This document shows, piece by piece, positions 1-43,371 of a stretch of 64,000 nt of DNA (positions are counted from its first letter, which is position 1; the number at the start of each line of letters is the position of its first letter). The DNA lies in assembly GCA_036172245.1 (NCBI GenBank), contig JAYWIR010000076.1:124001-188000 (forward strand), read 5' to 3'. The notes beneath the pieces are model-generated. The model had not been told where the DNA came from, made no database searches, and saw only the letters and a list, made by a program, of their open reading frames with translations. This DNA is from Raillietiella orientalis (lineage: Eukaryota). Made by a program: the position numbers and the translations under genes.

Positions 1-264
1 TCGGCAGACCAGGGAAACTTTCGTCAACGCTATCGGACCACTTGCGGTTGATAATAGAGATTATGCCACGCGACAAAGGACCACCATCCAGGGCGTGGCG
101 TATACCAGGGGACTGGACGCGCATCTCCGGTGCAGCGGAACATCTCCGTCAGTTCCTCTGAAGTGTCATACTCCGAAACCTCGAAGACTGGGACCGCATG
201 AAGATCTCGGTATGCGAGTTCTGCGAGAATTTCCCTTTGCACCGCCTGCCCCAGGAATTTGGTG
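1..264 (+). mobile_element. Element Z: ORF2 fragment (end of APE endonuclease plus linker) of an L1/Tx1-type retrotransposon; host of element A
   Basis: Reads LSDHLRLIIEIMPRDKGPP..WRIPGDW..WDRMKISVCEFCENFPLHRLPQEFG, matching the same region of the other copies. Stops abruptly at the 3' terminus of A. Confidence 0.85.
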
Positions 265-3200
265 TTACAACCCGGGTACGCCCAGGACGATTATTAAAAA
301 AAACTCTACAATTGCGGTACCAGGCCCCGCTCACGGCCTTATGCACACGATCTACCGGTACGCCGGGACGCAGCCCGGCGTGGCACTCCCCGGCAGCGAC
401 AGGGGATGGGGAAAAAACAGAAGTGAAATAAAAAAACCACAAACAAACAAAAGAGGTTGGAGGGCAGGGAAGGGATCATCGTTCGCTGAGAGGAGGGCCC
501 ATCCGTTGAAGGAAGCCCTCGAAGTCCATCCGTATCTTCCTTAGTTGGGGCCATCGAGCAGCTCTCCGCAAGAAGCGTTGGGCATATGGGATGACATCCC
601 TCGCGTGTTGACCCACTTCTTCCTTGTTAGTGTCGCTATATGCCGCCACGATGCCACGGACGCAGCACCAGGCTGCAAGGGCTGCGGCTGGATGCAGGGC
701 GTCCTTCACGAAGAGGGGCCGAAGAACGTCTATAGGGAACTGCCCGTAGGGAGACCGAGGATCGTACCAAATCGTTCCCAAAGGGGACGAAGGGCAGCAC
801 AGTCCACAATAAGGTTGGAGAGCGATTCCCGCTCTCCGCACCTGACACACGCAGGATCCACAACTCCTCTTGTCCAGTGAGAGCATAGTGCGTTGCAGGG
901 TAAACCCCAATGCAACAACAGCAACGCCGACTCTTTCCAATTAAGGAGTAGGATCCTGGATTCCTGAAGAAGCGGGGGCCACTTCAGCACATCCATAGGG
1001 ATGACCAGCAGCTCGCCCCATCTTCTCAGTCCTCGCAACTGGACGCTCGGTGTTGTGGCGTCGGCCAGTTCTCCTGTTGTCCAGCCGCTGATCAACTTCT
1101 CGCGTCCCTTGATGCAGCAGGAGACATGCCACCTTGTCGTCCGGCTGCTGTGAAGTGCCCTCCTCAGGAAGGGCAGCGCCGTAGCTAGGCAGGTCGTCTC
1201 TGCCCACGTGCATCTTACTGGAATCTCCAGGAGATTCCGCAGCGTGCGGCGGGCGAAGGGGCTGCATCGGAGACGATTCCACGTTTCGTGGCTCCTCTGG
1301 TTAACCGCTACCCACGTTCCAATATTCACCTCCAGCCAGGCGGGGGAGTTGGCGGGGCAGCAAACCATCCAGCTGTTCTCCTTGGCCAATATAGCCATGC
1401 GCCCGAGCAGTAGGCCGCATCTTCGCATCTTCCGGCCACGGCTCAGAAGAAAAGACGCGAGTCCATCGCACTGGGACACACGGCTGGCCAGGAGGCGGGC
1501 TGGAGTGCACCAAGGAGTGCTCAACATCTTCGCTGCGATGGCGAGGGTTCGCCACTGCAGCTGATTCTCCACGCGCTCCAGCGTCAGGAGGCGAAAACCG
1601 CCGTCGCGACGCGGAGCGCACAAGTCCTTCAGAGGGACTCGGGGCCTCCCCTTGCCCCAAAGGGCGATACGGAGGAGGTCCTTCGTCCTGTTCTTGGATT
1701 CCACGGTGAGGGGCATACAAAAAGCAAGGGGCGGAGGATAAAGGCCGCAAAGGCGTTTCAAACCGCGGCCCGTTCCGGCAAGTGAAACTTGCCTTCCAGG
1801 AACGGGCCGATCGCCGGCTCGTCTTTTTGGAGGCAGCTGGACCACGCTTCCGCAGGGGAGGAGTCCCCCAACGGCACACCGAGGTACTTGAAGCACCTCG
1901 CCGTAGGGATCCCCAAACAGATTCAGTCCTGCTGCCCTGCCCACGCCGCACCTATCGGCACAACCGACGACTTCGCCACTGTTAACCTGCTGTCCGGTCC
2001 CGCGACTGAGCAGATCGAAGAAGTTTCCGTCCGCCTTTGCCGGGGTAGACATTGGCAACAAATGCAGAAGATCGTCGGCGTACGCTGCTACGGCGGGAGT
2101 GCCGGGGCACGAGCTCGGCAAGGGGGCCAAAGTCTCCCTGTAAGCTCTCAGCACCATCTCAAAGTAGGTGCTGAAGAGAAGGGGGCTGAATCTATCGCCC
2201 TGTCTTATGCCCCGCCGCAACGGCACGCCATACACCTTCTGTCCACTGAAAGACACGGTAATCATCGCATTCCGCCAGCAAGAGCGCAAATAGGAAATCA
2301 GGGAGGGTGGGAAGCCCATGCGACCCAGGAGCTCCAAGAGGAGTTCCTGGTCTACACAGTCGAACGCCTTGTGGAGATCGACTGCGAGCGCTAGGGCCCC
2401 CTTCCCCGCCCGGGGATCCCTTTCCAGCCCGTCTGGCGGCCCCAATGTGGGGTTGCCGACTTTCCCTATCCCTTTCTTTTCTCTTCTCTGCAGGTGCACC
2501 CATGTGCTTTCGAAGAAGAGGTTGGCATCCATACTTCGCCCGGGAACAGCATAAGTCTTCTCCGGGCTAATTACCGATTCTGCCACCTGCCCCAGACGCG
2601 AAGCCCATAGCCCTACTATCAACTTGGCGTCCGTATTCACGATCGTGATCGGACGCCAGTTCTTTAAATTCCTGAGGTCTCCCCCTTTCGGAAGGAGCCT
2701 CACTCTGGCTGACCGAAACGAGACGGGAACATCGCCTTCGTCTCGGATCAGCCCGATCAACTTGAGCAGCAGGGGTGCCAGCTCTTCCGTGAAGCTCTGA
2801 AAGAACTTCGCTGGCAAGCCGTCTTCCCCTGGAGCTTTACGCCTCTTGAGCCTTTTGATACCGGCGAGAATTTTGCCGGTGGTAAAAGGCTCGTCGAGGC
2901 TTTCCATCTCCTCGTCCCCTATTGCCGGGGCGCCATCGGGAAGCAAGAGCCGAGAGGCGTTTCGATTCGGGGGCTCCCTGGCGTAAAGGGAGGAATAAAA
3001 ACTCCGCACGACATGCCGTACCGACGCCGGGGACGAACATTCCCGGCCCTGGTCGTCCAGCAAGCTGGCCGACCCGGAGTGCCAGGCTTGGCGTTCGGCC
3101 CCGCCGCGGCACTCGGCCAGGCGACGGACATTAGGGGTTCTTTCGTACCTACGAGCCTGTAGATAGGCTTGATGGTTGCGAGCACCGTCGTTGAATCCGG

Positions 3201-3282
3201 GGGGCAGGCGATTAAGGGGGAACTGCTCACAGAACTCGCGGACCGATTCCTTAAAAAGGTCCCAGTCCTGGAGATTCCGGAG
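265..3282 (-). mobile_element. Element A, 3' part (linker, RT, C-terminus, 3' UTR); continues at 31765-32103
   Basis: RT motifs WRPITIVN, DLHKAFD, GIRQGD, AYADD and C-terminal CVRCGERE. Terminal hairpin motif at 265-295. Interrupted at agattccggag (3272-3282). Confidence 0.9.
476..3282 (-). pseudogene. Element A ORF2 (reverse transcriptase), frameshifted
   Basis: ORF 730..3063 (777 aa) plus a shifted C-terminus ending at 476. Confidence 0.88.
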
Positions 3283-3367
3283 CGTCGAGCGGACGTGTCT
3301 TTTCGTTGCTCCTGAGTTTCATTTCCGTTGGTGCTTGTGCGTGGTGTTGGTGGAGGATTAGGCGGAA

Positions 3368-5016
3368 ATGCCTGATACCACCACCGGTGAGGTTCCGGGG
3401 GCGATGATCTCATTGACTTCACAGCAAATGGAGGTGGGGGCTCCCGCATCAGTGGAGACTTCCGCCAGCACGGATGCGCCCCGGCCCTACCCAAGGCTTG
3501 GAACGCCGTGGCAGCGGCACCTACGCCAGCGGCTATGGCGGAAATGCGCGCTTACCTGAAGGAGTGGTATCACCCACCCCTTCTATATAAGGTAGGCGGT
3601 CTATATCCTCCTGTGAACGCGCGCGCCTTCTCACAGGCGATGCGCGTTCTCGGCGTACAGAAAAAGGAGCTTCTGGCTATGTCCGTCAGAAGCGGGGGTC
3701 AATTTGTGGTAGTTATCTGCAAGGAGGCAACTCTTGCGCACAGACTTCTGCGAACCCCCGTAATTATGGGCAGCCGAAGGCTTCTACCAATTACTGAAGA
3801 CCGGTCGGTGATCATTCACCTGACCGGTATCACGTTCCGGATGACGAAGGAGGCCGTCCGGAACGAATTGGAAAAATTCGCAACTGTCCACGCGCTGTGG
3901 GGAAAGTCTACTCCTTTTGTCGATTACGACGGGGTGCTTGGCGGCCTGGGTGCATCGCGAGTGACGGTTCGCGAGGGATGTGAGGTTCCCCACAAACTCA
4001 CCGTCAACGGTGAATCCGTTGACGTGTGGTACGTGGGGAAACCCAAGTTTTGCGGCTGCTGCAGCAGCTTTGGTCACCTTAAAATGAGGTGTCCGAGCGT
4101 GCAGTGCCAGCAATGCAACCAAGCGGGGCACACCCGTCTTGTGTGCCCCCGAAACACAGTCCGCGTAGTGTCCTCGAAAAACGCGAGAAAGCGCGCTGCT
4201 AAGAAGAGTAAAAAGCTGGCAGCTCGTGTTGCTGCTAAGGAGGTCACTTCCGCCACCAAGGCGAAGGCCAGCCTCGACACCCCGGCGAAAAACGCTGAAA
4301 AGGTCGAGGGTGAGGGTCAAGAGCCAGGGTGGCAGAAGGTCGATCCCAAGAAAAACTCCCATAAGAAGGGAAAGAACGTGGCGAAACGGAGCGAAACCGC
4401 TCTGCGCCGCGAAAAAATTAAAAGCTGCTGCGTCGTTGTAGAGCGGATTCCCGCCATCGACGGATGCGGCGCTAAAGAACTCGCTGCCGCCCCTGCTCAA
4501 CCCTCCGTTGACAAAGTCAACAAGGAGGGGAGCGAGGCGGCGGCGTCCGTCAGCGGAAGGGGAAGCCGGACGCCATACGTCGCCTTCGAGCGCGCCGCGG
4601 AGGAGCTGGCTGCCTCGCTGCAGCCGGTTGCCCCCGAGGCTGGCAAGAAGGCCGTAAGGCGTCCGGCTTCCCCTCAGGAGTCGGCCACTTCCGACCCCGA
4701 GGTGAAGGCCGGAAAGACAGCATCCATCTCCGCGGCACCCCGCAAAAAGGCAGGACGAAAGTCCACAATGCCCCGGAAGATCGTTTCCCCCGACGAAGGG
4801 GAAGAGATGGCTTCCGGTAGCGAGGGTGCCATGAGCGTGGGAAACTCCCGGGACCCGTCGCCCGAGAGAATTCCACGCTCGGACACGGAGGGGATGGTGA
4901 GGATGGAGGCCGAACAGGTACCCCAGGCGCCTGAAGAGGCCTCCGTCCTCGTACCGATGGACCTTTCCTACACCTGCCCCGCGGCAGGTGTCGCGACGCC
5001 ACTTTCCCAGCCATAA
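3368..5016 (+). pseudogene. Element E ORF1, gag-like protein with two CCHC zinc knuckles (one frameshift near 3490)
   Basis: CGCCSSFGHLKMRC and CQQCNQAGHTRLVC knuckles and a basic low-complexity tail. The stop overlaps the ORF2 start (TAATG, 5014-5018). Confidence 0.85.
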
Positions 5017-5167
5017 TGCCGGAAATCGCCTCTCGCCGTCGTCTTCTGATCGCCTGTTGGAACGTGAACGGGCTAAGCGACGACGGCAAGAGGCGCGACG
5101 TGGCCGCCACCCTGGCATCCTTCGACCTGGTGCTGCTGCAGGAGATCCACGTGATCTCCGCAGATCA

Positions 5168-5179
5168 AGCCCGGGAGAT
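5168..5179 (+). repeat. Target-site duplication of B1/B2: agcccgggagat (copies agcgcgggagat 11109-11120 and agcgcaggagat 17070-17081)
   Basis: Three near-identical 12-mers flank and separate B1 and B2. Removing the insert restores the E ORF2 frame A-R-E-I-E-R-I. Confidence 0.9.
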
Positions 5180-5532
5180 TTCTCACCCGGTCACGCCGGG
5201 GCGTTTATTCCATATAACATAACGAAAAAAAGCAATTATACAAAATAAACCAGTTGGGAACCAAACTCCCAACCGACGACTGAACAAGAATGAAGAGAAT
5301 ATTGCTGGCACGCAGGCAAGAGTAACAGTTTTGTGAACGGTGTGGGGGGGCGGGAAACACAAAGAAACCAAAATAAAATAAAAACAATGAATAAGGAGGA
5401 CGGGATAAGGGTCTTTGGGATCGCTCTGGAAGACACGGGGATAAAAGCATGGGCACCGGAACTTTTACCGAGCAAACAAGGACGGGGTATGGGTGGGCAA
5501 GAGGTCGCAGGGGTCACCGGATTACGCCGTTC

Positions 5533-8500
5533 TCAAAGGTGTGTAAACCGGCGATGTATGCCGGTGATGTCCCCATTCACCTTGTCACGAAGATGAGACC
5601 ACCTTGAAGCCTTCTCCATGAATTGTGCTGCAAGCAGGTGAGCCTCCCTTCGCTGCGAAGACAACTCCAGGGCGTAGCGGGCCTTCACGATGGCGCGAAC
5701 GCAACACATGTTTGCGACAATCGCGCCAACCGAAAGTCCATTTCTGCTAAAGAAGCGCCGCAGCACATGAATGGCAGTGCCTCCTTGTGGCATGATGGCC
5801 GAAGTGAGCCTTCGCCACAGTTCCCGGAGGTCACCGCAGTCCAGCAAAAGGTGCGGACAAGACTCGATCTCTCCGCACCTTAAACAGTTTGGCAAAGCAG
5901 CTCCCCCGGAAACGATGCTTCGCTGCCTATTACAGTGAAATGCACAATGTAAAAAGAGCAGCACATCTTGTTTCCACTTAAGGGGGAACACGGAGCTGTC
6001 CAAACAAACGGGAGGAACCACTATCTCTCCGAGGGGCACACTTAAATGTTCGCTCCACCGAAGCAGTCCCTTCGCCCGATTCCGAGGTGTGGCGGCTTGC
6101 ACCAGCTCCTTTGTCGTCCAGCTGCCGAGGAGCTTACTGACTCAACCTATTTTGCAGGAGAACTCCCATTCCGCCGGTAGGCAACCGTCGTTGCTTGCCC
6201 TGAGTGCAGACAGCGCTTCGGCGAGTGATGTGGCGGCCAGACGATCCGCCAACTTCTTGTCCTGCATGACTTCGTCCATTTGATGACTGAGGAGAAGTCG
6301 CAGGCGTCGAAGATCTTCCGGCCGCGTTCCTTCGGAAGCCGCCCACAATGAAAAAGATTCCTGCCGCCATTCATTAATGTTCATGGGGCGGCAGGAGATC
6401 CAGCTTTGGGCTTCCAGCAGTGAGGACAGCTGCCTGAGCGGGAAGCCAAACCCTATTCTGGTGTGCCGAAAGTGGGGTAGCAACGAAAGCAGTCCCTCGC
6501 TTCCCGCGCAGCGCCTCAGTATAAGGCGTGCGTGTAAGCACCACGGCGTACACCACAGCTTGGCACAGAGCCGCAGCATGCGAAACTGCACCTGCAGTTC
6601 GATGCTGTTTAAGTCGAGGATGCCCAAGCCTGAATCCTGACGCGGCGCCACCAAGTCTTTAAGTCTAACACGGGATCTTGCAGCGCCCCACAACGCTTTG
6701 CGTAAGAGGCGCTGCGCCCAGACTTTGACTTCCTGGGGGGGTGGACAAACAAAAAACAGGGGGCGGAGGAGGGGGGCAACGAAGGTGTTCCAGATGCAGG
6801 CCCGTTCCGGCAAGACGAACTCGCCTCCTGAAAACGGGCCAAGTGCACGCTCTGCCTACCGAAGGCAGCCCGACCACGCTTCTGAGATGCAGAAGTCGCC
6901 CAACGGCACGCCAAGGTACCTGAGGTACCTGCCCGTGGGGATCCCCAGGTCGATCCAGTCGGACTGCCCCTCCCACGTCGCACCCACCGGAACAACCATA
7001 AACTTACTCCTGTTAACGCTCACGCCCGCACCGCGACGAATCAACTCAAAGAAGTCTTCAAGCGATGTCGCCGGGGTGGACATGGGCAACAGAAGAAGCA
7101 GGTCGTCGGCATAGGCTGCCACGGCAGGCGTACCTGGACAATGGCTCGGCAGGTTGGCTAGCGTCAGCCTGTAAGCCTCCAGCACCAATTCAAAATAGAT
7201 GCTGAAGAGCAGCGGGCTTAAGCTGTCACATTGCCTAATTCCTCGTCGTACCGGCACGCCGTACACGCGACAGCCACTGAAAACAATGGATGTAATCTTG
7301 TGACGCCAGCAGGAGCGCAAGTACGCCAACAGGGATGCCGGAAGACCCATACGTTCCAAAAGCTCAAGAAGAAGCTTTTGGTTCACGCAATCGAAAGCTT
7401 TGTGCAGATCGACTGCAACTGCACAGGCTACTGGGGTTTCGCTTTGCGACCCGTGCCTCCGTTAGTGAGAGATCGAAGGCGTCGCTACCGCATGACGATC
7501 CATTGCCACGCGATGATTCAATGGTAGCCATGTGCGGATGAACAAGAGGTTCGCGTCCATGGACCGCCCAGGAACAGCATAGGTCTGCTCCGGAATCACC
7601 AAAGACTTCGCGATCCTCCCCATCCGCGCCACCCAAAGTTCCGAGAACAACTTGACGTCCGGGTTCACTAATGTGATCGGACGCCAGTTTTTCAGTTGGC
7701 GCAAATCTCCGCCTTTCGGCAGTAGACGCACCTTCGCTGAGCGAAACGAGGCGGGGACATCGACCGAGTCTCGCATCAGTGACGAGAGTTGGAGCATCAG
7801 GGGGATGAGCTCCGCCGCAAAACACTGAAAGAATTCCGCGGGGAGCCCATCTTCGCCTGGCGCTTTTCGTCTCTTGAGCCCCGAGATGGCCGAGGAAATT
7901 TCCTCTGCCGTGAAGGGCTCATCAAGATGCGCGCTTTTCTCCTCGTCTACAACAGGTGCATCAATCGGCAGAAGCAGCAGGGAGAAGCTGCGTTCCGTCG
8001 GTGCCTCTGCATACAGAGAAGAGTAATAGCGCCTGACTATCCGTCGCACGTCGGCTGGAGCCGAGCATTCCCGGTGCTGGTCGTCGAGCAGAACTGTCGC
8101 CCCTGACTGCCAGACCTGGCGCTCGGCCTTGGCCTTGTACTCGGATAATCGACCAACGTCCGCGTGCCTGGAAAAGGAGCGGGCCTGCAGAAAATCTCTG
8201 CTGTTGGCTACGCCCTCTCCGAAGCCGCGCGGAAGCTGGTGCAAGGGAAACCGGCAGCAGAACTCGCGGACCGATCTTTTCAGATCGTCATAGTCCTCGA
8301 GCTCACTTATGGCAAAGCCGAGGAGGTACTGGCGAAGCTGCTCAGCCGCCTACGGGTGCCTTAGCCAGTCTGCCGGCATCCTCCAAAAACAGTTTGGAGG
8401 CCCCTTGCCTGACGGGAGCAATTCAAACTCGAGCCTGTTGTGGTCTCAAAGCACGGACGGCGCGGGACCTCTCCGACCCACTCGACACAGCAAGTGTTCA

Positions 8501-9087
8501 TCAAGGTATACGTGGTCCGGCGTTGCTGCCATAACAGGATCGCTAGCAAACAAGTTCCACGCGTGCACGGACGCGCACATCTCTTCCGCTAGCAACTTTT
8601 CCCTTTTGTGGGATCTATTCTCGGAGGGAAGGTGGACGTTAAAGTATCCCGCAATCAGATGGGCCACAGTAGGGTGAGATCGAGTGAGCCACTGGCTTTG
8701 AAGGGTACCGAAGAACTCAATCCTTTCGGCCCATCGTCCAGCACCGCTCGGCGCGTATACGTTGGTTATGACAAGGTCGATCGAGTCGGACAACTTGAGT
8801 ACAAGCTGTCCCACTCGGCCTTCCGTGTCGAAACGAACGCTGCGCACCGCTGTTGCCAAAGTTCCTCGCACGAGGAAAGCGACGCCGCACCTATAAAGTA
8901 GCGTTCCGCCCGCGCGCCGCTGGATTTCGGCAGCCTGCTCACCGGAGATGCTGTGAATCTCCTGCAGGAGCGTCAAGTCGAAGGCGCTCCGAGCGTCAGC
9001 CACTAGTCGCCTCTTCTCCTCGTGTTGGAGCCCGTTGACGTTCCAAGACGTTACGGCAACACGACGAGCAGACGCGATTGCTCTCAT
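5533..9087 (-). pseudogene. B1 ORF2 (APE + RT + Cys/His), broken by frameshifts and stops
   Basis: ORF pieces 8446..9090 (WNVNG, LQE, NVYAP), 7462..8244, 6856..7386 (YADD), 6142..6813 and 5533..6102. Confidence 0.9.
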
Positions 9088-10991
9088 CACGGCTGGGAAA
9101 GCGAGGCCGTGGTACTCGCCTCACCCGGCGAGCGGGCAGTAAGCAGCACAAAGGGGGTGGTGGACTCGGTCGCCACCGGCCTCAACTGTGCTGCACGTAA
9201 TCGGGTGCTCCTCCCCGGTATAGAACCTGTGATTTCCGAGGTGAGCACTCGCCGTTCCGCGGCGAGTGTGTCACGCCTCAGGGCTTCAGTCCTGCGGGCG
9301 CTCGCTCCCGCGCGAGATACGCGTCCTTCAGCTGCGTTATCGGACTCCTTAGCGGAGTCTGATGCTCGCACGATCGACGTGCGTTTGTATCCGTCCGATT
9401 GCACCGGAATGGTCTTCTCGGCGGTCACAGAAGCGGACTTGCACGCGTTGAAGGCGCTGGCTTTTTCCTTGGAAGAGTCACAAGCCGCGCGTGTTTTCGT
9501 ATTCCCGCGACTGCTTTTTCCTTTGGAAGAGCTCAGGGATGGAGGTTGCGGAGCTTTTTTTGGGGATTTTTCTTTCCTCCTCTTCACAACCTTCCATTCG
9601 CCTTCGCGATTTTCGGAGGCTTCCGCGACAGTAGTTGCGGAAACCTTCGGGATTTTCGCTGCGTTCTCTGGGGGCGTTGCTTTCGCTACGCCTTTAAAAA
9701 ACGGCAACGGAGTCACCTTCTCGACAGTCGGGAGATTGCTCCTCTCGTGCCGAGTCGGCGATGGGGCGACTGCATGCAGCGTGCTTTTGCTCGTCGCGAC
9801 GCTGCTTTTTACGGTTTTCGTAGCCTTTGCAGTGGGGCCTGCGCTGCAGTGGGGCTGTCCGGAACTCCGGAGGGACAACGGAACGGGGCAAGAAGTCTTC
9901 GCACTGTTGCGATCTTCCTGTTTTCCTACCTTTTCCTCCAGTGTGTTACGGAGATTTCCTGGTTCCAGGCTCGGAAAGGTGCCTGCGAGTTCGGCAGAGA
10001 GGGAAGGCACGGCACGCGTCAAACCCTCGCGCCCCTTTTTAATTGGCTTCCCCGCCGTTACTTTCCCCTTTCGGGGCGTTGCGGGCGGGGATGCTTTCTT
10101 TTTATCCGCGGATCGCTCGTGGTTTTTTTCGAGTTTTAGCGGACGAGGTTCTTTATTTGCCGCTGCGGCTTTTCGTGCAGTGGTCTCTTGAACCCGACGA
10201 ATTTCCGCTGCGGCTCTTTTTCTTGCAAGTACCGGGCACTTTTTGATTTCGTGCCCGGAATCTTTGCAATAGCGGCATCTTGGAGAGGGGCACTCTTTAA
10301 TTCGGTGCCCCTCCTTGCCGCACTGCTCGCACGCGCGACTCTGGCCTATGAACCACAGGTGAACGACCGTGCCGTTCACCTGCAGCTGCTCAGGCACAAC
10401 ACGCCTGTTCGCGACGGTGATCCGCGCGGAGGCTTGTCCAATGTGGACAGAGGGGAAATCCTTAAGAAGATTTCGCCTCCTCCACAGAGCGTGCACGGTG
10501 GCGAACTTCGCCTGCACACTTACGATATCGCGGTAGGAGATTTCCGGTTCGATGTCACACAATTGAACGACAAAAGAGTCGTCCATCGCGGTAGGTAGGA
10601 CTTCCTTGCCATTGAAGGTCAACGGCGTACGGAGAAGGCGCTGCACAAGTGCTGCGTTCTTGTACCGAATCTTCGTATTTTCCATCCTGCCAGGAGGCAT
10701 TATGGCAAGGACTTCCTCCTCGCGAACGCCGATCCGGACGAGCTCATCATTGAGCTCACGACCGATACTCCCGTTAAGGGGCCCACTGACCTTATAACGG
10801 AGTGCAGGCATGTATCCTGATGACACATATGCCTGGAACTCCGCATCGCAGGGTCCTGGTGTTTGGGAGGTAACGGCGGAGTAACTCCGCACCGGGGGCG
10901 AGGAAACCATTACGGAGGATGCGGCCACTTCAAGTGCAGCTGAAGTGCATCCAGTGGCTTGCTCCTCCACACTATCCTGTGTACTGGCCAT
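9087..10991 (-). CDS. B1 ORF1, uninterrupted 634-aa gag-like zinc-knuckle protein
   Basis: CEQCGKEGHRIKEC and CRYCKDSGHEIKKC. Ends in a TGATG overlap with ORF2 (9085-9089). Confidence 0.85.
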   Translation of the reverse strand: MASTQDSVEEQATGCTSAALEVAASSVMVSSPPVRSYSAVTSQTPGPCDAEFQAYVSSGYMPALRYKVSGPLNGSIGRELNDELVRIGVREEEVLAIMPPGRMENTKIRYKNAALVQRLLRTPLTFNGKEVLPTAMDDSFVVQLCDIEPEISYRDIVSVQAKFATVHALWRRRNLLKDFPSVHIGQASARITVANRRVVPEQLQVNGTVVHLWFIGQSRACEQCGKEGHRIKECPSPRCRYCKDSGHEIKKCPVLARKRAAAEIRRVQETTARKAAAANKEPRPLKLEKNHERSADKKKASPPATPRKGKVTAGKPIKKGREGLTRAVPSLSAELAGTFPSLEPGNLRNTLEEKVGKQEDRNSAKTSCPVPLSLRSSGQPHCSAGPTAKATKTVKSSVATSKSTLHAVAPSPTRHERSNLPTVEKVTPLPFFKGVAKATPPENAAKIPKVSATTVAEASENREGEWKVVKRRKEKSPKKAPQPPSLSSSKGKSSRGNTKTRAACDSSKEKASAFNACKSASVTAEKTIPVQSDGYKRTSIVRASDSAKESDNAAEGRVSRAGASARRTEALRRDTLAAERRVLTSEITGSIPGRSTRLRAAQLRPVATESTTPFVLLTARSPGEASTTASLSQP

Positions 10992-11476
10992 GTTGCACTA
11001 TGCTACTTGGCAGATTGCACAGGAACACACAAGTGCGAGCAAAAACGCAGGCACAAAGTTGCCCGATCGTTGGCGCGGAAAGACGCGGAAACACGTCTGC
11101 ACTGTACGAGCGCGGGAGATTTCTCACCCGGTCACGCCGGGGCGTTTATTCCATATAACATAACCAAAAAAAAAAGCAATTATACAAAATAAACCAGTTG
11201 GGAACCAAACTCCCAACCGACGACTGAACAAGAATGAAGAGAATATTGCTGGCACGCAGGCCAGAGTAACAGTTTTGTGAACGGTGTGGGGGGGCGGGAA
11301 ACACAAAGAAACCAAAATAAAATAAAAACAATAAATAAGGAGGACGGGATAAGGGTCTTTGGGATCGCTCTGGAAGACACGGGGATAAAAGCATGGGCAC
11401 CCGAAATTTTACCGAGCGAACGGGGACGGGGTATGGGTGGGCGAGAGGTCGCAGGGGTCACCGGATTACGCCGTTC

Positions 11477-14400
11477 TCAAAGGTGTGTAAACCGGCGATG
11501 TATGCCGGTGATGTCCTCATTCACCTTGTCACGAAGATGAGACCACCTTGAAGCCTTCTCCATGAATTGAGCTGCAAGCAGGTGAGCCTCCTTTCGCTGC
11601 GCTGACAACTCCAGGGCGTAGCGGGCCTTCACGATGGCGCGAACGCAACACATGGTTGCGACAATCGCGCCAACCGAAAGTCCATTTCTGCTGAAGAAGC
11701 GCCGCAGCACATCAATGGCAGTGCCTCCTTGTGGCATGATGGCCGAAGTGAGCCTTCGCCACAGTTCCCGGAGGTCACCGCAGTCCAACAAAAGGTGCGG
11801 AAAAGACTCGATCTCTCCGCACCTTAAACAGTTTGGCAAACTAGCTCCCCCGGAAACGATGCTTCGCTGCCTATTACAGTGAAATGCACAATGTAAAAAG
11901 AGGAGCACATCTTGTTTCCACTTAAGGGGGAACACGGAGCTGTCCAAACAAACGGGGGGACCCACTATCTCTCCGGGGGGCACACTTAAATGTTCGCTCC
12001 ACCGAAGCAGTCCCTTCGCCCGATTCCGAGGTGTGGCGGCTTGCACCCGCTCCTTTGTCGTCCAGCTGCCGAGGAGCTTACTGACTCCCGCTATTTTGCA
12101 GGAGAACTCCCATTCCGCCGGTAGGCAACCGTCGTTGCTTGCCCTGAGGGCAGACAGCGCTACGGCGAGTGGTGTGGCGGCCAGACGATCCGACAACTTC
12201 TTGTCCTGCATGACTTCGTCCATTTGATGACTGAGGAGAAGTCGCAGGCGTCGAAAATCTTCCGGGCGCGTTCCTTCGGAAGCTGCCCACGATGAAAAAG
12301 ATTCCTGCCGCCATGCATTAATGTTCATGGGGCGGCAGGAGATCCAGCTTTGGGCTTCCAGCAGTGAGGACAGCTGCCTCAGCGGGAAGCCAAACCCTAT
12401 TCTGGTGTGCCGAAAGTGGGGTAGCAACGAAAGCAGTCCCTCGCTTCCCGTGCAGCGCCTCAGTATAAGGCGTGCGAATAAGCACCACGGCGTACATCAC
12501 AGCTTGGCACAGAGCCGCAGCATGCGAAACTGCACCTGCAGTTCGATGCTGTTCAAGTCGAGGATGCCCAAGCCTGCATCCTGACGCGGCGCCACCAAGT
12601 CTTTAAGTCTAACACGGGATCTTGCAGCGCCCCACAACGCTTTGCGTAGAAGGCGCTGCGCCCAGACTTTGACTTCCTGGGGGGGTGGACAAACAAAAAA
12701 CGGGGGGCGGAGGAGGGGGGCAACGAAGGTGTTCCAGATGCGAGCCCGTTCCGGCAAGACGAACTCGCCTCCTGAAAACGGGCTAAGTGCACGCTCTGCC
12801 TTCCGAAGGCAGTCCGACCACGCTTCTGAGACGCAGAAGTCGCCCAACGGCACGCCAAGGTACCTGAGGTACCTGCCCGTGGGGATCTGCAGGTCGATCC
12901 AGTCGGACTGCCCCTCCCACGTCGCACCAACCGGAACAACCATACACTTACTCCTGTTAACGCTCACGCCCGCACCACGACGGATCAACTCAAAGAAATC
13001 TTCAAGCGACGCTGTCGGGGTGGACATGGGCAACAGGAGAAGCAGGTCGTCGGCATAGGCTGCCACGGCAGGCGTACCTGGACAGGAGCTCGGCAGGTTG
13101 GCTAGCGTCAGCCTGTAAGCCTTCAGCACCAATTCAAAATAGATGCTGAAGAGCAGCGGGCTTAAGCTGTCACCCTGCCTAATTCCTCGTCGTACCGGCA
13201 CGCCGTACACGCGACACCCACTGAAAACAATGGATGTAATCGCGTGGCGCCAGCAGGAGCGCAAGTACGCCAACAGGGATGCGGGAAGACCCACACGTTT
13301 CAAAAGCTCAAGAAGAAGATTTTGGTTCACGCAATCGAAAGCTTTGTGCAGATCGACTGCAACCGCCAAGGCTCCCGGTGTCTCCCTTTGCGTCCCGCGC
13401 CTCTGTCGGTGAGAGATCGAAGGCGTCGCTTCCGCACGACGATCCACCTCCACACGAAGCTGCAATTGCAGCCATGTGCGGATGAACAAGAGATTCGCAT
13501 CCATGGACCGTCCTGGAACAGCGTACGTCTGCTCCGGACTTACCAAGGATTCCGCGATCCTACCCATCCGCGCCACCAAAAGTTTCGAAAACAACTTGAC
13601 GTGCGAATTCACTAATGTGATCGGACGCCAGTTTTTCAGTTGGCGCAAATCTTCGCCTTTCGGCATTAGACGCACCTTCGCTGAGCAAAACGAGGCGGGC
13701 ACATCGCCCGAGTATCGCTTCAACCACGAGAGTTGGAGAACCAGGGGGATGAGCTCCGCCGCAAAACACTGGAAGAATTCCGCGGGGAGCCCATCTTCGC
13801 CTGGCACTTTTCGACTCTTGAGCCCCGAGATGGCCGAGGAAATTTCCTCTGCCGTGAAGGGCTCATCAAGACGCGCGCGTTCCTCCTCGTCTACAACAGG
13901 TGCATCAATCGGCAGAAGCAGCCGGGAGAGGCTGCGTTCCGTCGGTGCCTCTGCATACAGAGAAGAGTAATAGCGCCTGACTATCCGTCGCACGTCGGCA
14001 GGAGCCGAGCATTGCCGGTCCTGGTCGTCGAGCAGAACTGTCGCCCCTGACTGCCAGACCTGGCGCTCGGCCTTGGCCTTGTACTCGGATAATCGACCAA
14101 CGTCCGCGCGCCTGGAAAAGGAGCGGGCCTGCAGAAAATCTCTGCTGTTGGCTACGCCCTCTCCGAAGCCGCGCGGAAGCTGGTGCAAGGGAAACCGGCA
14201 GCAGAACTCGCGGCCCGATCTTTTCAGATCGTCCCAGTCCTCGAGCTCACTTATGGCAAAGCCGAGGAGGTACTGGCGAAGATGCTCAGCCGCCTCCGGG
14301 TGGCTTAGCTAATCTGCCGGCATCCTCCAAAAACAGTTTGGAGGCCCCTTGCCTGGCGGGAGCAACTCGAACTCGAGCCTGTTGTGGTCTGAAAGCACGG

Positions 14401-15049
14401 ACGGCACGGGACCTCTCCGACCCACTCGACAGAGCAAGTGTTCATCAAGGTATACGTGATCCGGCGTTGCTGCCATAACAGGGTCGCTAGCGAACAAGTT
14501 GCACGCGTGCACGGACGCGCACATCTCTTCCGCTAGCAACTTTTCCCTTTTGTGGGATCTATTCTCGGAAAGCAATTGGACGTTAAAGTCCCCCGCAATG
14601 AGATGGGCCACAGTAGGGTGAGATCGAGTGAGCCACTGGCCTTGAAGGGTACCGAAGAACTCAATCCTTTCGGCCCATCGTCCAGCACCGCTCGGCGCGT
14701 ACACGTTGGTTACGACAAGGTCGATCGAGTCGGACCACTTGAGTAAAAGCTGTCCCACTCGGCCTTCCGTGTCGAAACGAACGCTGCGCACCGCTCCCGC
14801 CAAAGTTCCTCTCACGAGGAAAGCGACGCCGCACGTACGTGCAACGCCGCACCTATAAAGTAGCGTTCCGCCCGCGCGCCGTTCGATTTCGGCAGCCTGC
14901 TCTCTGGAGATGCTGTGAATCTCCTGCAGGAGCGTCAAGTCGAAGGCGCGCAGAGCGTCAGCCACTAGTCGCCTCTTCTCCTCGTGTTGGAGCCCGTTGA
15001 CGTTCCAAGACGTTACGGCAACACGACGAGAAGACGCGATTGCCCTCAG
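11477..15049 (-). pseudogene. B2 ORF2 (APE + RT), interrupted by in-frame stops
   Basis: ORFs 14309..15052 (GDFN, SDH), 12497..14188 (YADD) and 11477..12427 lie in the same frame. Confidence 0.9.
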
Positions 15050-16952
15050 CACGGCTGGGAAAGCGAGGCCGTGGTGCTCGCCTCACCCGGCGAGCGGGCA
15101 GTAAGCAGCACGACGGGCTGGAGGGCGCGGTCGCCACCGGCCTCAACTGTGCTGCACGTAATCGGGTGCTCCTCCCCGGGGGCAGAACCTGTGGGTTCCG
15201 GGGTGAGCACTCGCCGTTCCGCGGCGAGTGTGTCACGCCTCAGGGCTTCAGCCCTGCGGGCGCTCGCTCCCGCGCGAGTTACGCGTCGTTCAGCTGCGTT
15301 ATCGGACTCCTTTGCGAATTCTGATGCTCGCACGATCGACGTGCGCTTGCATCCGTCCGATTGCACCGGAATGGTCTTCTCGGCGGTCACAGAAGCGGAC
15401 TTGCACGCGTTGAAGGCGTTGGCTTTTCCTTGGAAGAGTCACAAGCCGCGCGTGTTTTCGTATTCGCGCGACTGCTTTTTCCTTTGGAAGAGCTCAGGGA
15501 TGGAGGTTGCGGAGCTTTCTTTGGAGATTTTTCTTTCCTCCTCTCCACAACCTTCCATTCGCCTTCGCGATGTTCGGAAGCTTCCGCGACAGTAGTTGCG
15601 GAAACCTCCGGGATTTTCGCTGCGTTCTCTGGGGGCGTTGCTTTCGCTACGCCTTTAAAAGGCGGCAACGGAGTCACCTTCTTGACAGTCGGGAGATTCC
15701 TCCTCTCCTGCCGAGTCGGCGATGGGGCGACTGCATGCAGCGTGCTTTTGCTCGTTGCGACGCTGCTTTTTACGGCTTTCGTAGCCTTTGCAGTGGGGCC
15801 TGCGCTGCAGTGGGGCTGTCCGGAACTCGGAAGGGACAACGGAACGGGGCAAGAAGTCTTCGCACTGTTGCGATCTTCCTGTTTTCCTACCTTTCCCTCC
15901 AAGGTGTTACGGAGATTTCCTGGTTCCAGGTTCGGAAAGGTGCCTGCGAGTTCGGCAGAGAGGGAAGGCACGGCACGCGTCAAACCCTCGCGCCCCTTTT
16001 TAATTGGCTTCCCCGCCGTGACTTTCCCCTTTCGGGGCGTTGCGGGCGGGGATGCTTTCTTTTCATCCGCAGATCGCTCGTGGTTTTTTTCGAGTTTTTG
16101 CGGACGACGTTTTTTATTTGCCGCTGCGGCTTTTCGTGCAGTGGTCTCTTGAACCCGACGAATTTCCGCTGCGGCTCTTTTACTTGCAAGTACCGGGCAC
16201 TTCTTGATTTCGTGCCCGGAATCTTTGCAATAGCGGCATCTTGGAGAGGGGCACTCTTTAATTCGGTGCCCATCCTTGCCGCACTGCTCGCACGCGCGAG
16301 TCTGGCCTATGAACCACAGGTGAACGACCGTGCCGTTCACCTGCAGCTGCTCAGGCACAACACGCCTGTTCGCGACGGTGATCCGCGCGGAGGCTTGTCC
16401 AATGTGGACAGAGGGGAAATCCTTTAGAAAATTTGGCGTCCTCCACAGAGCATGCACGGTGGCGAACTTCGCCAGCACACTTACGACATCGCGGTCGGAG
16501 ATTTCCGGTTCGATGTCGCACAATTGAACGACAAAAGAGTCGTCCATCGCGGTAGTTAGGACTTCCTTGCCATTGATGGTCAACGGCGTACGGAGAAGGC
16601 GCTGCACAAGTGCTGCGTTCTTGCACCGAATCTTCGTATATTCCATCCTGCCAGCAGGCATTATGGCAAGGAGTTCCTCCTCGCGAACGCCTATCCGGAC
16701 GAGCTCATCATTGAGCTCACGACCGAATCTCCCGTTAAGTGGCCCACTGACCTTATAACGGAGTGCAGGCATGTATCCTGATGACACATATGCCTGGAAC
16801 TCCGCATCGCAGGGTCCTGGTCTTTGGAAGGTAACGACGGCGTAACTCCTCACCGGGGGCGAGGAAACCATTACGGAGGATGCGGCCACTTCAAGTGCAG
16901 CTGAAGTGCATCCAGTGCCTTGCTCCTCCACACTATCCTGTGTACTGGCCAT
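15049..16952 (-). pseudogene. B2 ORF1, frameshifted near 15425
   Basis: ORFs 15387..16952 and 15046..15390 together match B1 ORF1. Confidence 0.87.
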
Positions 16953-17081
16953 GTTGCACTATGCTACTTGGCAGATTGCACAGGAACACACAAGTGCGAG
17001 CAAAAACGCAGGCACAAAGGTGCCCGATCGTTGGCGCGGAAAGACGCGGAAACACGTCTGCACTGTACGAGCGCAGGAGAT

Positions 17082-17805
17082 CGAACGGATCTCGGGTGGG
17101 CGGCTGTTGTGGCGTTGCGGCACCGCGAAATCAAGCGGTGTCGCCTTCCTGCTTCGGCCAGCCATCGAGACCGCAATAAAGGACGTTCGGTTCGATGACG
17201 CAGGTCGCGTCGGTCAGCTGACTCTCAGCTGGTCCGACTCTATCGACCTGGTCGTCACCAACCTATACGCTCCTAGCGGTAACAACGCGCTGAGAGCGAA
17301 GGCAAGAAGGGAATTCTACCTTGCCCTGAGACGCGATTGGCTGACCGATGCAGGAGTTCGCAAAGCGCACCTGATCGCAGGTGATTTCAACCTGCGCCTG
17401 CTTTCAGGTGCGCCGGATACACTGAACGACCGCGTCAACGAGTTGTGCGCAGAAATGAACACGCGCAACTTGTTGGCCGGGGACACGGCCATGGAAAGCA
17501 GCACCGATCACGTGTACCTTGATCTGCACCTATGCTCTCGGGTGGGCAGGCGCGGCAAGGTACCATCCGAGCTGTCGGACCATGGTCGGATCATGTTCGA
17601 AATGCGTCCGCGCGACAAGGGCTCCCCCTCGTCAGCGTGACGTCTGCCAGGGGACTAGCTGAAGTTTCCCGACGCTGCGGAGCACCTTTGCGCGTTCATT
17701 CGGAGCTTCAGGATGCAGACACTTCAGGACTGGGACCGCTTCAAGCGGTCGGTCCAGGAGTTCTGCGACCAGTTCCCCTGCATCGCCTACCTGCGGGGTT
17801 TGGGG
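17082..17805 (+). mobile_element. Element E segment 2 (APE endonuclease core and linker)
   Basis: SGVAFLL, NLYAP, AGDFN, DHVYL, LSDH, then PLHRLPAGFG where F is inserted. Confidence 0.9.
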
Positions 17806-18022
17806 TTCTCACCCGGGTACGCCCGGGGCGTTTATTGAAAAAAGTCTACATAAACGTGGTACAAGGCCCCTCTAACGGCCACACAACACCGGACCTGCCG
17901 GGACGCCGGGACGCAGCCCGGCGTGACGCTCCTCGGCAGTGGAGGGGGATAGGGATCAAAACAAAAAGAAAAATAAAGATATCAAAAGAAAAACAAAAAG
18001 AGTTTGGAGGGAGGGGAAGGGA

Positions 18023-21000
18023 TCACAATCCACTGGGAGGAGGGCCCATGCATCGTAGGATGCCTTCCAGGTCCATCTTCATGCTTCCCAGATAGGGCCA
18101 TCTCGCAGCTCTCCGCATGAAGCAGACCGCATACGGGATGACATCCCTCGCGTTGGCATCCACTCCTTCGTCGCGAATGTCGCTCCAGGCCGCCACGATG
18201 CTTCGGATGCAGCAGAGGGCTGCGAGGGCTGCGGCGGGCTGCAAGGCGTCCCGCACGAAGAGGGGCCAAAGAACGTCTCTGGGCGCGCTGCCCATTGGGA
18301 GCCCGAGGGTCGTCCCGAACCGTTCCCACAGTCAACAAGTAAGTGGAGGAGCAATTCCCGCTCCTTACACCTGGCACACTCAGGCCTTACACTTCCCCTC
18401 GTCCAGTGGAAGCGGCGCGCGTTGCAGGGTAGACCCCAGTGCAACAGTAGCAGCGCCAACTCTTGCCACTTAAGGGGGAGAAGCCTGGATTTGATTAATA
18501 TTGGCGGCCACTTCAGGTCATCCGTCGGGATGCCGAGAAGCTCTCCCCATCTACGAAGTCCACGCGGGAGGGCAATCGGGGTTGTGGCATCTGCCAGTTC
18601 TCCCATGGTCCAACCGCTCTTCCTCTTTTCCTTGCCTGCGATTCGGCAGGAGACTTGCCACTTTGGCTTGCGGCCGGTCGTTAAAGCCCTTCGTAGGAAG
18701 GGCAGGGTCGAAGCTAGGGGGGTATTCTCGGCCCACGTGCTCCTGGCGGGACACTCCAGAGTAGTCCGCAGTGTGTAGCAGGCGTTGGGGCGGTTCCAGT
18801 CCGGGGAAGTCTGGAGGTTCAGCTTGGCCCAAGTCGCAACGGATTCCTCCAGCCAGGCGGAGGAGTTGGCGGGGCTGCATACCATCCAGCCGTTGTCTCT
18901 CACCAGGGCTTCCATGCGCCCAAGGAGAAGGTTGCATCTTCTGACCTTCCTGCCAGAGCACAGAAGGTACGACGCGAGTCCTTGCGTCCTGGACACACGG
19001 CTGGCGAGGATGCGGGCCTGAGCGCACCAAGGGGTCCTCCATGACATTGCTGCGATGGCGAGGGTGCGCCATCGCAGCTGTATTTCCAGGCGCTCCAGCG
19101 TCAGGAGGCCGAGACCGCCGTCCCGACGAGGAGTGCATAAGTCATCTAGAGGCACACGTGGCCTTTCGCTGCCCCAGAGGGCGATGCGGAGTACGTCCTT
19201 GGTCCTCTTTTTAATGTCACGGGGGACGGGGCAAACAAAAAGCAGTTGGCGGAGGATGGGAGCCGCGAACGCGTTCCACACCGCGGCCCGTTCCGGCAGA
19301 AGGAACTTGCCTTCCAGGAACACGCCGATTGCCAACTCTACCTTTTGGAGACGACCTGACGAGGCTTCTGCGAGGCAGAAGTCCCCCAACGAAACACCCA
19401 GGTACTTCAGGTACCTGGCCGCGGGGATCCCCAAGCGGATCAAGTCAGGCCGTGCGACCTACGTCGCACCCACCGGTACGACCGACGACTTCGCCTTGTT
19501 TACCCGAAGTCCAGTCCCACGACTTAGCAGGTCGAAGAAATCCTCGACTGCGGCTGCCGGGGCGGACATGGGCAACATGAGCAGAATGTCGTCGGGGTAT
19601 GCTGCTACCCCGGGCGTGCCGGGGCACGAGCTGGGCAGGGCAGCCAAAGTCACCCTGTACGCTCTCAGCACCAACTCAAAGTAGGTGCTAAAGAGCAGGG
19701 GACTGAGGCTATCGCCCTGCCGTATGCCCCGTAGCACCGACACGCCGTACACCTGTTGGCTGGAGAAGCAGATGTTAAGGATGGCGTTGCGCCAGCAGGA
19801 GCGCAGGAAGGAGAGAAGGGAGGGTGGGAAGCCCATGCGACCCAGGAGCTCCAACAGTAGCTCCTGGTCAACGCACTCGAACGCCTTATGGAGATCGACC
19901 GCGATCGCTAGGGCCCCCTTTTCAGCCCGGGTGTCTATTTCCAGCCCAGCTGGCGGTTCCAAAGTGGGGTTGCCAATCTTACCGCCAGTTTCATTCAGGC
20001 AGCGCTGCACATGGAACCATTTGCTCGCGAAGAACAGGTTGGCATCCATACTTCGCCCGGGAACAGCGTATGTCTGCTCCGGGCTAATTATGGAGTCTGC
20101 CACCTGTCCTAGACGCGAAGCCCACAGTCCAGCGACCAGCTTGGCGTCCGTATTCACAATTGTGATCGGCCGCCAGTTGTCTAGGGATCTCAGGTATGCT
20201 CCCTTCGGGAGGAGCCTCACACGGGCTGACCGAAACGAGGCGGGACCGTCGCCTTCATCTCGGATCAGCCCGGTCAACTGGAGCACCAGAGGAGCCAGCT
20301 CTGTCGCGAAGCATTGAAAGAATTCCGCAGGCATGCCGTCCTCCCCTGGCGCCTTACGCCTCTTGAGCCTTTTAATACCGGCGAGAATTTCACCGGTAGA
20401 AAAAGGCTCGTCGAGGCTGATCCTCTCCTCCTCCCCTATTGCCTGGACTCCGTCGGGAAGCAGGAGCCGCGAGGCGTCCCGCTCTGGGGGTGCCCTAGCG
20501 TAGAGGGAGGAATAGTACTGCCGCACGAGGTGCCTGATCGCGGGTGGGGCCGATCGCTCCCGGCCCTGGTCGTCCCGCAAGCTGGCCGACCCGGATTGCC
20601 AGGCTTGGCGCTCGGCCCCGGCTGGAAATTCGGCCAGGCGACGGACATTGGAGGACCTCCCTTACCGGCGGGCCTGTAAATAGGCCCTATGGTTCCGAGC
20701 CCCCTCCCCAAATCCGGAAGGCAGGCGGTGCAGGGGAAACTCCTCGCAGAACTCGCGGACCGAGGCCTTGAAGAGGTCCCAATCTTTGAGACTGCGGAGG
20801 GTGACGCCTCTCAGGAATTCGTCAAGGTGTTCCTTCGCACCTTAGAGCCGCGTCCAGTCCCCAGGCAACCGCCACGCCCTGGCCGGGGGTCCTTCATCGC
20901 GCGGGCATACCTCGGCGATTAACCTGGAATGGTCCGACAGCGTCCACGCAACTTTTCCCCGTTTGCCGACCCGCGAGCACAGGTCGACATCCAGGAAGAA

Positions 21001-25611: not shown

Positions 25612-25837
25612 TTTACACCCGGGTGCGCCGGGGCGTTTATTTCTTTAATAAAAAAAAATAAACAAGCAAGTGTAGGGCTATCGCCCCTACAGTGTTCAGA
25701 ACATGTTCTTCTGAACTCGCCGAGTGGGCAGTACGCAGGCTCTCAAGGTCGATTCGGCAGCGGAGGGGGAAGGGACAAATAGAAAAAAGCAAAAAGAAAA
25801 CACTATTTACAAAAGCAGGGAGGGGTTGGGGAAGGGA

Positions 25838-31025: not shown

Positions 31026-31112
31026 CCCCCGACCACTGATGCACCGCACTACACCAATAAAGTCGAGCGAGTCAAGAGCGCGCAGAGAACACGTCTGACC
31101 GTCGGCACTGCT

Positions 31113-35900: not shown

Positions 35901-35909
35901 GATTGAAAT

Positions 35910-43289: not shown

Positions 43290-43371
43290 TGCAGAGTTAC
43301 TCAGTATATATACCACTCCACAGACAACGAAATCCAAGTCTTACTTACAGTAAATTTCAGACAGCACCATT

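Follow-up and report, generated by a model that had tools for sequence, protein, structure and literature searches.

Nine 3' ends of long interspersed nuclear elements (LINEs) in a 64,000-nt stretch of Raillietiella orientalis DNA (assembly GCA_036172245.1, contig JAYWIR010000076.1, positions 124,001 to 188,000; hereafter, the window) share a 30-nt module of the form AATAA(A/T)CG-CC(C/T)GG-loop-CCGGG-T(G/T)NNAA. All nine elements stop without a poly(A) tail a few nucleotides beyond the GC hairpin contained in this module. On balance, the sequences favor the view that these are LINEs of an L1-like (possibly Tx1-like) lineage with a stringent-type 3' recognition module; the 30-nt end would be its core, and the module would fix the start of reverse transcription. 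The whole evidence base consists of nine ends from one 42-kb nest. These represent approximately seven independent lineages, as the copies B1 and B2, and likewise C1 and C2, are near-duplicates of each other.

A Conserved Module at Nine LINE Termini

The pattern AATAAWCGYCCYGG-N4-7-CCGGGT has nine matches in 64 kb, which are exactly the nine ends, while a mean of 0 matches is expected by chance (100 dinucleotide shuffles). A covariance model built from the nine ends and run with its filters off returned the same nine sites only, at 39–50 bits, and the next best match in the window scored 11.6 bits (E 1.8). Approached from the coding side, tblastn identified eight C-termini of the second open reading frame (ORF2), with the motif located approximately 205–330 nt downstream of each. 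As the ninth copy, C1, is internally deleted, the module is present at 9/9 LINE ends. The terminal domains are as follows:

265–313, minus strand: A, GC hairpin CCUGGG-CGUA-CCCGGG of 6 bp with one U-G wobble, tail UUGUAA
5180–5251, minus strand: B1, 30-nt module at 5180–5209, AU hairpin GUUUAUUUU / GGAAUAAAC with a 30-nt loop, GC hairpin CCCGG-CGUGA-CCGGG, tail UGAGAA
11121–11195, minus strand: B2, twin hairpin as in B1; its end adjoins the TSD copy located ahead of the B1 5' end
17806–17857, minus strand: F, AU hairpin CGUUUAU/AUAAACG, GC hairpin CCCGGG-CGUA-CCCGGG, tail UGAGAA
25612–25664, minus strand: D, AU hairpin of 10 bp, GC hairpin CCCGG-CGCAC-CCGGG, tail UGUAAA
31718–31764, plus strand: E, the 3' end of the large plus-strand element H, AU hairpin GUUUAUUC/GAAUAAAC, GC hairpin CCCGG-CGCAC-CCGGG, longer tail UUUCAAUCA
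32104–32147, minus strand: C1, AU hairpin GUUUAUUA/UAAUAAAC, GC hairpin CCCGG-CGUGA-CCGGG, tail UGAUAA
35910–35953, minus strand: C2, like C1, tail UGACAA
41348–41390, plus strand: G, GUUUAUU/AAUAAAC arms, GC hairpin CCCGG-CGAAAU-CCGGG, tail UGAAAA

The GC stem is paired in 9/9 copies and comprises 5 bp, or 6 bp in A and F, and its loop belongs to one of four types (CGUGA in four copies, CGCAC in two, CGUA in two, and CGAAAU in one). An initial annotation of this DNA, made from the letters alone, had placed the motif at nine positions and strands, described its stem as fixed and its loop as varying, and had the elements end without poly(A) a few nucleotides beyond the hairpin; all of these observations were reproduced, and the pattern occurs at no further site.

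The terminal sequence is conserved far above the rest of the element, as expected of the tail of a stringent-type LINE. Among the seven lineages, the mean identity of the terminal 30 nt is 0.80 versus 0.455 in the upstream untranslated region (UTR) and 0.30 in the flank. When the final 1,380 nt of six subfamilies are aligned, no other 30-nt window is as conserved as the terminal one (0.786), the best coding window reaching 0.718 and the overall value being 0.45.

Searches outside the window yielded no relatives. The DNA pattern was found at five loci in metagenome contigs, where no LINE context surrounds the motif on reading, at seven single-match loci of prokaryote genome contigs in records titled bacterial, which were treated as chance from their titles, and at none in viral contigs. 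All 12 of these loci are single hits and were treated as chance matches. A search by protein for relatives in metagenome contigs produced 154 pattern matches, none of which was confirmed. An Rfam scan of 5150–5560 at E values up to 10 gave one unrelated match on the opposite strand, below its gathering score; neither a histone-type 3' stem-loop nor another known Rfam family was matched there.

Tail-Less Ends Defined by Target-Site Duplications

Poly(A) at the 3' end, the usual though not universal state in the L1 clade, is absent from 9/9 copies. The terminal A run measures 1–4 nt in all nine, plus one ambiguous A where the flank begins with A, as it does in six of them. The ends are fixed by target-site duplications (TSDs) and lie 6 nt past the GC stem, or 9 nt in H/E:

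3272–3282, plus strand: 5' copy of the 11-bp TSD of H, AGATTCCGGAG; H spans 3283–31764
31765–31775, plus strand: 3' copy of the H TSD, which sets the H/E terminus at 31764
25600–25611, plus strand: 12-bp TSD of D, GTCGGCACTGCT, beside the D 3' end; the other copy lies at 31101–31112 and D spans 25612–31100
5172–5179, plus strand: 8-bp host sequence of the B pair, CGGGAGAT, beside the B1 3' end; present again at 11113–11120 between B2 and B1
17074–17081: third copy of the B-pair sequence, as CAGGAGAT, a double-insertion signature
32095–32103, plus strand: 9-bp host sequence of the C pair, GATTGAAAT, beside the C1 3' end; present again at 35901–35909 between C2 and C1

In the host element A, the 9-bp sequence of the C pair codes for (D)FN within the GDFN endonuclease motif, and 7/9 ends adjoin coding sequence of a host element. 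Precise, tail-less ends located 6–9 nt past a conserved hairpin in nine flanks are as predicted by hairpin-positioned initiation of target-primed reverse transcription (TPRT).

The boundaries of the B insertion can also be read from the host element, as excising 5180–17081 restores the reading frame of H. Sequencing runs were compared on positions 1–20000, namely a DNA run (X1, 0.42 of the words) and two runs of the same study. A contig of X1, a related DNA run, joins 5176 to 17079, with three letters fitting both sides, which is weak evidence given a side of 33 and a depth of 5. X1 contigs of this kind (5176–5179 joined to 17079–17082) carry an uninterrupted element H across the site of the B dimer. 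Many other X1 contigs are 85–99% like the copies in the window, which points to further copies of the family in that sample. Among the 18 loose ends listed, of a set with 236 more, none was usable at the four 3' junctions. A joint from 5209 to 5538 in X1–X3 (side 22) was not used, as it could represent a copy devoid of most of the UTR or merely a diverged copy.

The long tail of H/E, UUUCAAUCA, includes an 8-mer (31757–31764), TTTCAATC, that is identical to the host-coded target duplication of the C dimer (32095–32103) in the GDFN motif. A possible source of this 8-mer is a short 3' transduction, the master copy having been located at a site of the same kind.

Predicted Structure of the 3' Untranslated Region

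Upstream of the GC hairpin, 8/9 copies have a GUUUAUU (CGUUUAU in F) that lies 5' of AAUAAAC and pairs with it across a loop of 4–33 nt, and the resulting AU hairpin has at least seven contiguous pairs in these eight. The pair above its 7-bp core differs between subfamilies: A-U in C, C-G in E, U-G in B, and U-A in D. As MAFFT left the 5' arms of this hairpin out of register, it was tallied copy by copy with a script. The GC hairpin is part of the minimum free energy (MFE) fold of all seven sequences folded. The twin hairpin is both MFE and centroid structure in four of the seven lineages, namely F, B1, E, and A (the GC hairpin only in A), and centroid structure in two more, C1 and D. In G, an alternative AU fold is the MFE structure, in which the GC hairpin forms and the AAUAAAC arm is unpaired. 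Fold z-scores range from -1.3 to -3.1 across the seven lineages, with values of -1.85 for B1 (-21.2 kcal/mol), -1.93 for F, and -3.07 for D, where 0/200 shuffles fold as well.

Three further hairpins recur upstream of the terminal GC hairpin, and two upstream helices covary. One of the two is HP1, for which the following sites were located:

360–381, minus strand: HP1 of A, 8-bp stem, loop CUGCGU; helix 1, with 4/6 pairs changed on both sides
approximately 17903–17924 (F), 11249–11264 (B2), 31637–31654 (E), and 41259–41278 (G): homologs of HP1

Both sides have changed at 4/6 pairs of this hairpin, whose loop reads CUGCGN, and at 2/5 pairs of a more variable hairpin. The pair that closes the HP1 loop is CG in three cases, GC in two, and UA in two. 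In the structure as a whole, 86.8% of cells are paired, a value reached by 0/500 shuffles and compared with 29–55% in slid controls, and 12 cells are changed on both sides (0/500 shuffles). The 3' UTR is consequently predicted to be a structured RNA whose last two hairpins are frozen in sequence.

Two statements of the initial annotation need to be qualified at this point. Its description of the remaining UTR as different between subfamilies is correct for the sequence (identity 0.455) and does not extend to the structure, in which the three further hairpins recur. The proposed polyadenylation-like signal does exist as AATAAA in 8/9 copies, but the same letters also form the 3' arm of a second hairpin in 8/9. 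Support from compensatory changes came from the upstream helices and not from the terminal stem.

Proposed Hairpin-Positioned Initiation and Its Alternatives

In the favored model, two hairpins would form side by side at the 3' terminus of the element RNA. The first, an AU hairpin, would have AAUAAAC as its 3' arm; the second would be a GC hairpin of 5–6 bp (CCCGG-loop-CCGGG), and a single-stranded 6-nt tail, U(G/U)NNAA, would follow. A protein of the element, most likely ORF2p, would grip this structure and bring the nicked target DNA to its final nucleotides, so that first-strand synthesis would begin 6–9 nt past the stem and poly(A) would not be copied, whether the RNA is tailed or not. With AAUAAA lying 24 nt from the terminus, ordinary cleavage there may also define where the RNA ends. 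The presence of the module at 9/9 ends, the exact and tail-less termini, the extreme conservation, and the covariation of upstream helices are observed directly, and it is from these that we infer the folding of the terminal hairpins in RNA, their reading by a protein, the identity of this protein, and the positioning of initiation. The combination of a fixed stem with a subfamily-specific loop parallels the published model for L2 elements, in which recognition is general for the stem and specific for the loop (Hayashi, 2014; PMC4176376).

Several observations weigh against this model. In the GC stem, four pairs are invariant and one shows a one-sided C-to-U change to a wobble pair; as no compensatory change exists in the terminal stem, conservation of sequence and of structure cannot be separated there, and CCCGGG is a DNA palindrome that could conceivably be conserved at the DNA level. 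Nor does the AU hairpin vary in its 7-bp core, and shuffled upstream sequence reaches the same AU stem length in 7–18% of trials for single sequences, the exceptions being D (0/1000) and A (73%). In copy A, AAUAAU replaces AAUAAA and the AU hairpin is absent or weak. The structure that was tested had been derived from the same nine sequences, which represent about seven lineages only. Every copy is decayed and carries in-frame stops, with no active copy seen, and a partner short interspersed nuclear element (SINE) with the same tail was not detected in the 64-kb window by the covariance model with filters off. Finally, plain 3'-end processing would account just as well for an AAUAAA at this canonical distance from the end.

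The last point leads to the strongest alternative, which has a real though clearly minor chance of being correct: the module might be only a signal for 3'-end formation, with AAUAAA and upstream U-rich sequence directing cleavage just beyond the GC hairpin, about 24 nt further on. In this case the RNA would be polyadenylated, reverse transcription would be primed on the first A residues via a 1-nt microhomology with a T of the target, and the hairpin would be unread by protein. The hexamer is intact in 8/9 copies, starts 30 nt before the end, and is separated from the terminus by 24 nt, which is about the usual distance in metazoans; U runs are located upstream of it, every end finishes in A, and the A that opens 6/9 flanks fits a primer ending in T. 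The host appears arthropod-like by one exon, and AAUAAA is the standard signal in arthropods. However, priming on poly(A) predicts variable and sometimes long A runs, whereas the nine runs are 1–4 nt in old and younger insertions alike. A downstream element could not travel along with the transposed copy, yet the ends are equally precise in nine flanks. Moreover, the hexamer is situated inside a predicted stem in most copies, and the conservation of the GC hairpin exceeds what a spacer ahead of a cleavage site would require.

It is improbable that the conserved end serves another step, be it as a packaging site for the ORF1 protein, as a primer or landing site for second-strand synthesis, or as a DNA-level signal such as a terminator, an insulator, or a promoter for the downstream neighbor, which would be relevant in head-to-tail arrays and nests. 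Such a role would suit the CCHC zinc knuckles of ORF1 and the G-containing loops seen here, as retroviral knuckle proteins bind hairpin loops that contain G. It would also suit the perfect and never-varying DNA palindrome of the stem and the two tandem dimers, which set a 3' end directly upstream of a 5' end. No sequence feature points specifically to any of these functions, however, and the very-terminal position and fixed distance to the end fit initiation best. Most copies have no following 5' end, given that 7/9 adjoin host-element coding sequence.

Also speculative and improbable is a scenario in which a Tx1/L1-like lineage of an arthropod-like genome homes to fixed sites in its own relatives and uses the two-hairpin terminus as a switch. 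With the AU hairpin open, AAUAAA may be read to yield a polyadenylated mRNA for translation. With the hairpin closed, the hexamer may be hidden and the GC hairpin may deliver RNA that lacks a tail or reads through the end to the reverse transcriptase, and synthesis would start at a fixed internal position; the extra 8-mer of H/E may be a trace of such read-through.

The absence of any function, with the 30 nt homogenized by gene conversion within the nest or shared through recent descent from one master, is very improbable even for nine copies within 42 kb of each other, as the boundary between the module (identity 0.80) and the sequence directly upstream (0.455) appears too sharp for either process, the ORF2 proteins differ by 33–50%, the nesting order shows different ages, and nine conversion tracts all stopping at the same 30-nt boundary are implausible.

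Comparison With Known LINE Systems

The choice of template and start point by LINE reverse transcriptases is known in detail for few systems, namely L1 with its poly(A), R2, and elements with L2-type hairpins. In R2 elements, which have no poly(A), the protein binds a structured 3' UTR and begins synthesis precisely at its 3' end. The elements described here resemble R2 in lacking poly(A) and in their exact 3' ends. They differ from it as follows: R2 encodes a restriction-like endonuclease in its only ORF and has a fixed target in ribosomal DNA (rDNA), whereas an apurinic/apyrimidinic endonuclease (APE) and two ORFs are present here, and the match to R2 proteins is far weaker than that to L1 (2e-14 versus 1.8e-39).

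The initial annotation had contrasted L1-clade elements ending in poly(A) with L2/CR1-type elements recognized through a 3' hairpin. This contrast is too simple, as both stringent and tail-less LINEs of the L1 clade have been published. L1-clade LINEs with conserved 3' hairpins include LINE1-1_ZM of maize and L1-1_CR/ZeppL-1_cRei of Chlamydomonas, and among 15 L1 families of green algae, two end in (A)n, eight in other repeats, and five have no 3' repeat (Ohshima, 2012; PMC3472496). Consequently, an L1-like element with a hairpin and no tail is of a known kind, and its existence is not surprising.

Close parallels in described features are the stringent L1s LINE1-1_ZM and L1-1_CR, which likewise combine an L1-like ORF2 with a conserved 3'-terminal 45–80 nt containing a hairpin, and in which divergence is far lower at the final nucleotides than elsewhere in the element (PMC3472496). 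In contrast to the tail-less ends found here, which have no terminal repeat, both elements end in poly(A), and the maize lineage shows compensatory changes in its stem together with a conserved loop, whereas here the stem is fixed and the loop variable (PMC3472496). Further differences are the arthropod-like host, the absence of a partner SINE in the window, and the hexamer being built into a neighboring stem.

For the L2 elements UnaL2, ZfL2-1, and ZfL2-2, the part of the report that was available describes a terminal stem-loop that is needed for retrotransposition, with a start just 3' of the hairpin that is independent of poly(A) (Hayashi, 2014; PMC4176376). As far as described there, L2-clade elements end in short tandem repeats past the hairpin, whereas a single 6-nt tail without repeat is found here (PMC4176376). 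L2 elements also belong to a different clade, while the closest solved relative of the present elements is human L1 ORF2p.

Two further groups resemble the elements in their insertion behavior. Zepp and ZeppL are L1-clade elements of green algae that, in the available part of the source, insert into their own copies and build local clusters, their arrays consisting mostly of 5'-truncated 3' ends with poly(A) (PMC8226300). Nesting itself is present in the window, but its copies are mostly full length and tail-less, unlike such an array, and the host is not a green alga as judged by the arthropod-like exon. The Tx1 clade is described in the accessible sections of Kojima (2015; PMC4494074) as living in animal hosts and being close to L1, with many families inserting at fixed sequences, including inside other transposons; the SINEU partner SINEs of crocodilian Tx1-Mar families all end in poly(A) in that account. 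Animal hosts, proximity to L1, and insertion inside transposons are shared with the present elements as far as this account goes, whereas the targets here are the element's own relatives.

If the favored model is correct, the terminus would offer a compact substrate of approximately 45–70 nt for studying how an L1-type ORF2 protein reads structure instead of poly(A), and a handle on how stringent recognition was relaxed in the evolution of L1.

Organization of the LINE Nest

The nest and its largest composite are defined as follows:

1–42180, no single strand: nest of L1-like LINEs, with ORF1 carrying CCHC knuckles and ORF2 carrying APE, reverse transcriptase, and a C-terminal Cys-His motif
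5180–17081, minus strand: tandem dimer B2-B1, copies of 5,953 and 5,933 bp that are 95% identical, located in the endonuclease coding region of H

The GC content is approximately 55–63% across the nest, and the remaining 22 kb of the window hold host-like sequence with 30–49% GC. Mapping of the pieces onto ORF1 and ORF2 gave the order of nesting. Copy A, on the minus strand, is located inside J, and H (plus strand, 3283–31764), whose 3' end is the end called E, is inserted in A. The B2-B1 dimer, F, and D are all situated inside H; the C2-C1 dimer lies inside A, and G inside a second A-like copy. All seven insertion events (7/7) occurred inside other LINE copies, and the nesting order implies insertions of differing age. 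Most insertions are complete or almost complete, and B1, B2, D, and H are full length.

ORF2 encodes approximately 1,200 amino acids with the domain order expected of the L1 clade, including Tx1: an N-terminal APE domain (PF03372, 4.4e-12), a reverse transcriptase (PF00078, down to 2.7e-20), and a C-terminal Cys-His motif, for which the zf-RVT match (PF13966, 8.4e-5) is weak and below its cutoff. The solved structure closest to the reverse transcriptase region is human L1 ORF2p (1.8e-39), with R2 proteins at 2e-14. The nearest database protein is 55% identical and all others are at most 37% (next best 33–34%); several matches carry plant-L1-type domains, and the named ones are plant L1-like (4e-24), followed by ingi-like (1e-9) and Tad-like (3e-5). 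An ESM Atlas search returned generic reverse transcriptase clusters only. These matches, which cover L1, R2, ingi-like, and Tad-like proteins, hint indirectly at an L1-like lineage.

The ORF2 proteins of the subfamilies are only about 50–67% identical. Four ORF2 frames (5533–9120, 11477–15082, 18079–20661, and 25861–28041) stay open over more than 1 kb, interrupted only by isolated stop codons of each type and by few frameshifts; decay proceeded mainly by substitution. An alternative genetic code as the source of the in-frame stops was ruled out, as TGA, TAG, and TAA are all present, which indicates mutation. The full-length 5' ends also share a motif:

3283–3300 (H), 11090–11112 (B), 31078–31100 (D), and 35880–35900 (C): G(C/T)(A/G)GACGTGT, 4–13 nt from the terminus; the bases preceding the motif differ

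Two kinds of repeated target use were identified. The dimers B2-B1 (5172–17081 with flanking duplications) and C2-C1 (32095–35909) are arranged head-to-tail with a copy of the host TSD (8 and 9 bp, respectively) in the junction, and their partners differ by approximately 5%. Such a junction copy marks double insertion at one site, which is the probable origin of both dimers. Tandem dimers from double insertion are known, for example, from an R1 array with 33-nt rDNA duplications, and share with B2-B1 and C2-C1 the target-site duplication in the head-to-tail junction, according to the part of the work available (McGurk and Barbash, doi 10.1101/158386). Double insertion accounts for the dimers and not for the 3' module. 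In addition, A in J (264/265) and F in H (17805/17806) are both inserted in antisense orientation, and their positions in the two hosts correspond to within 1 nt, at ORF2 residue 307. As the hosts J and H are 64% identical and the inserts A and F 77–78%, segmental duplication of a composite was ruled out, and the shared site points to two independent insertions at a preferred target. The other insertions in the nest are at different sites. Both self-nesting and same-site insertion bear on how transposon nests and tandem arrays begin.

Sequence Beyond the Nest

Just outside the nest, two ORFs in different frames (43354–43743 and 43936–44385, both plus strand) match a circovirus-type Rep (PF02407, 8.1e-14) and, below the cutoff, its helicase part (PF00910, 1.1e-3). 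The segment 43354–44385 looks like an endogenous Rep fragment of a CRESS-DNA virus (circular, Rep-encoding, single-stranded). It is followed at 44711–44945 (minus strand) by two short pieces of eukaryotic large subunit (LSU) ribosomal RNA, with no other part of an rDNA unit nearby. They correspond to model positions 2876–2984 (102.9 bits) and 3022–3108 (45.8 bits, below the gathering score), and represent an rRNA pseudogene fragment or a captured piece.

Two stretches of host-like coding sequence follow. An ORF with a CAP/GLIPR-type domain (PF00188, 6.5e-23) is located at 51825–52667 on the plus strand and is uninformative as to the host. The exon on which the arthropod-like character of the host rests is found at 54877–55182 (minus strand) and encodes part of an alpha-N-acetylgalactosaminidase (PF16499, 6.1e-23), whose named best matches are mostly from arthropods at 80–85% identity. 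Between 56 and 62 kb, the GC content falls to 30%, resembling introns or intergenic DNA.

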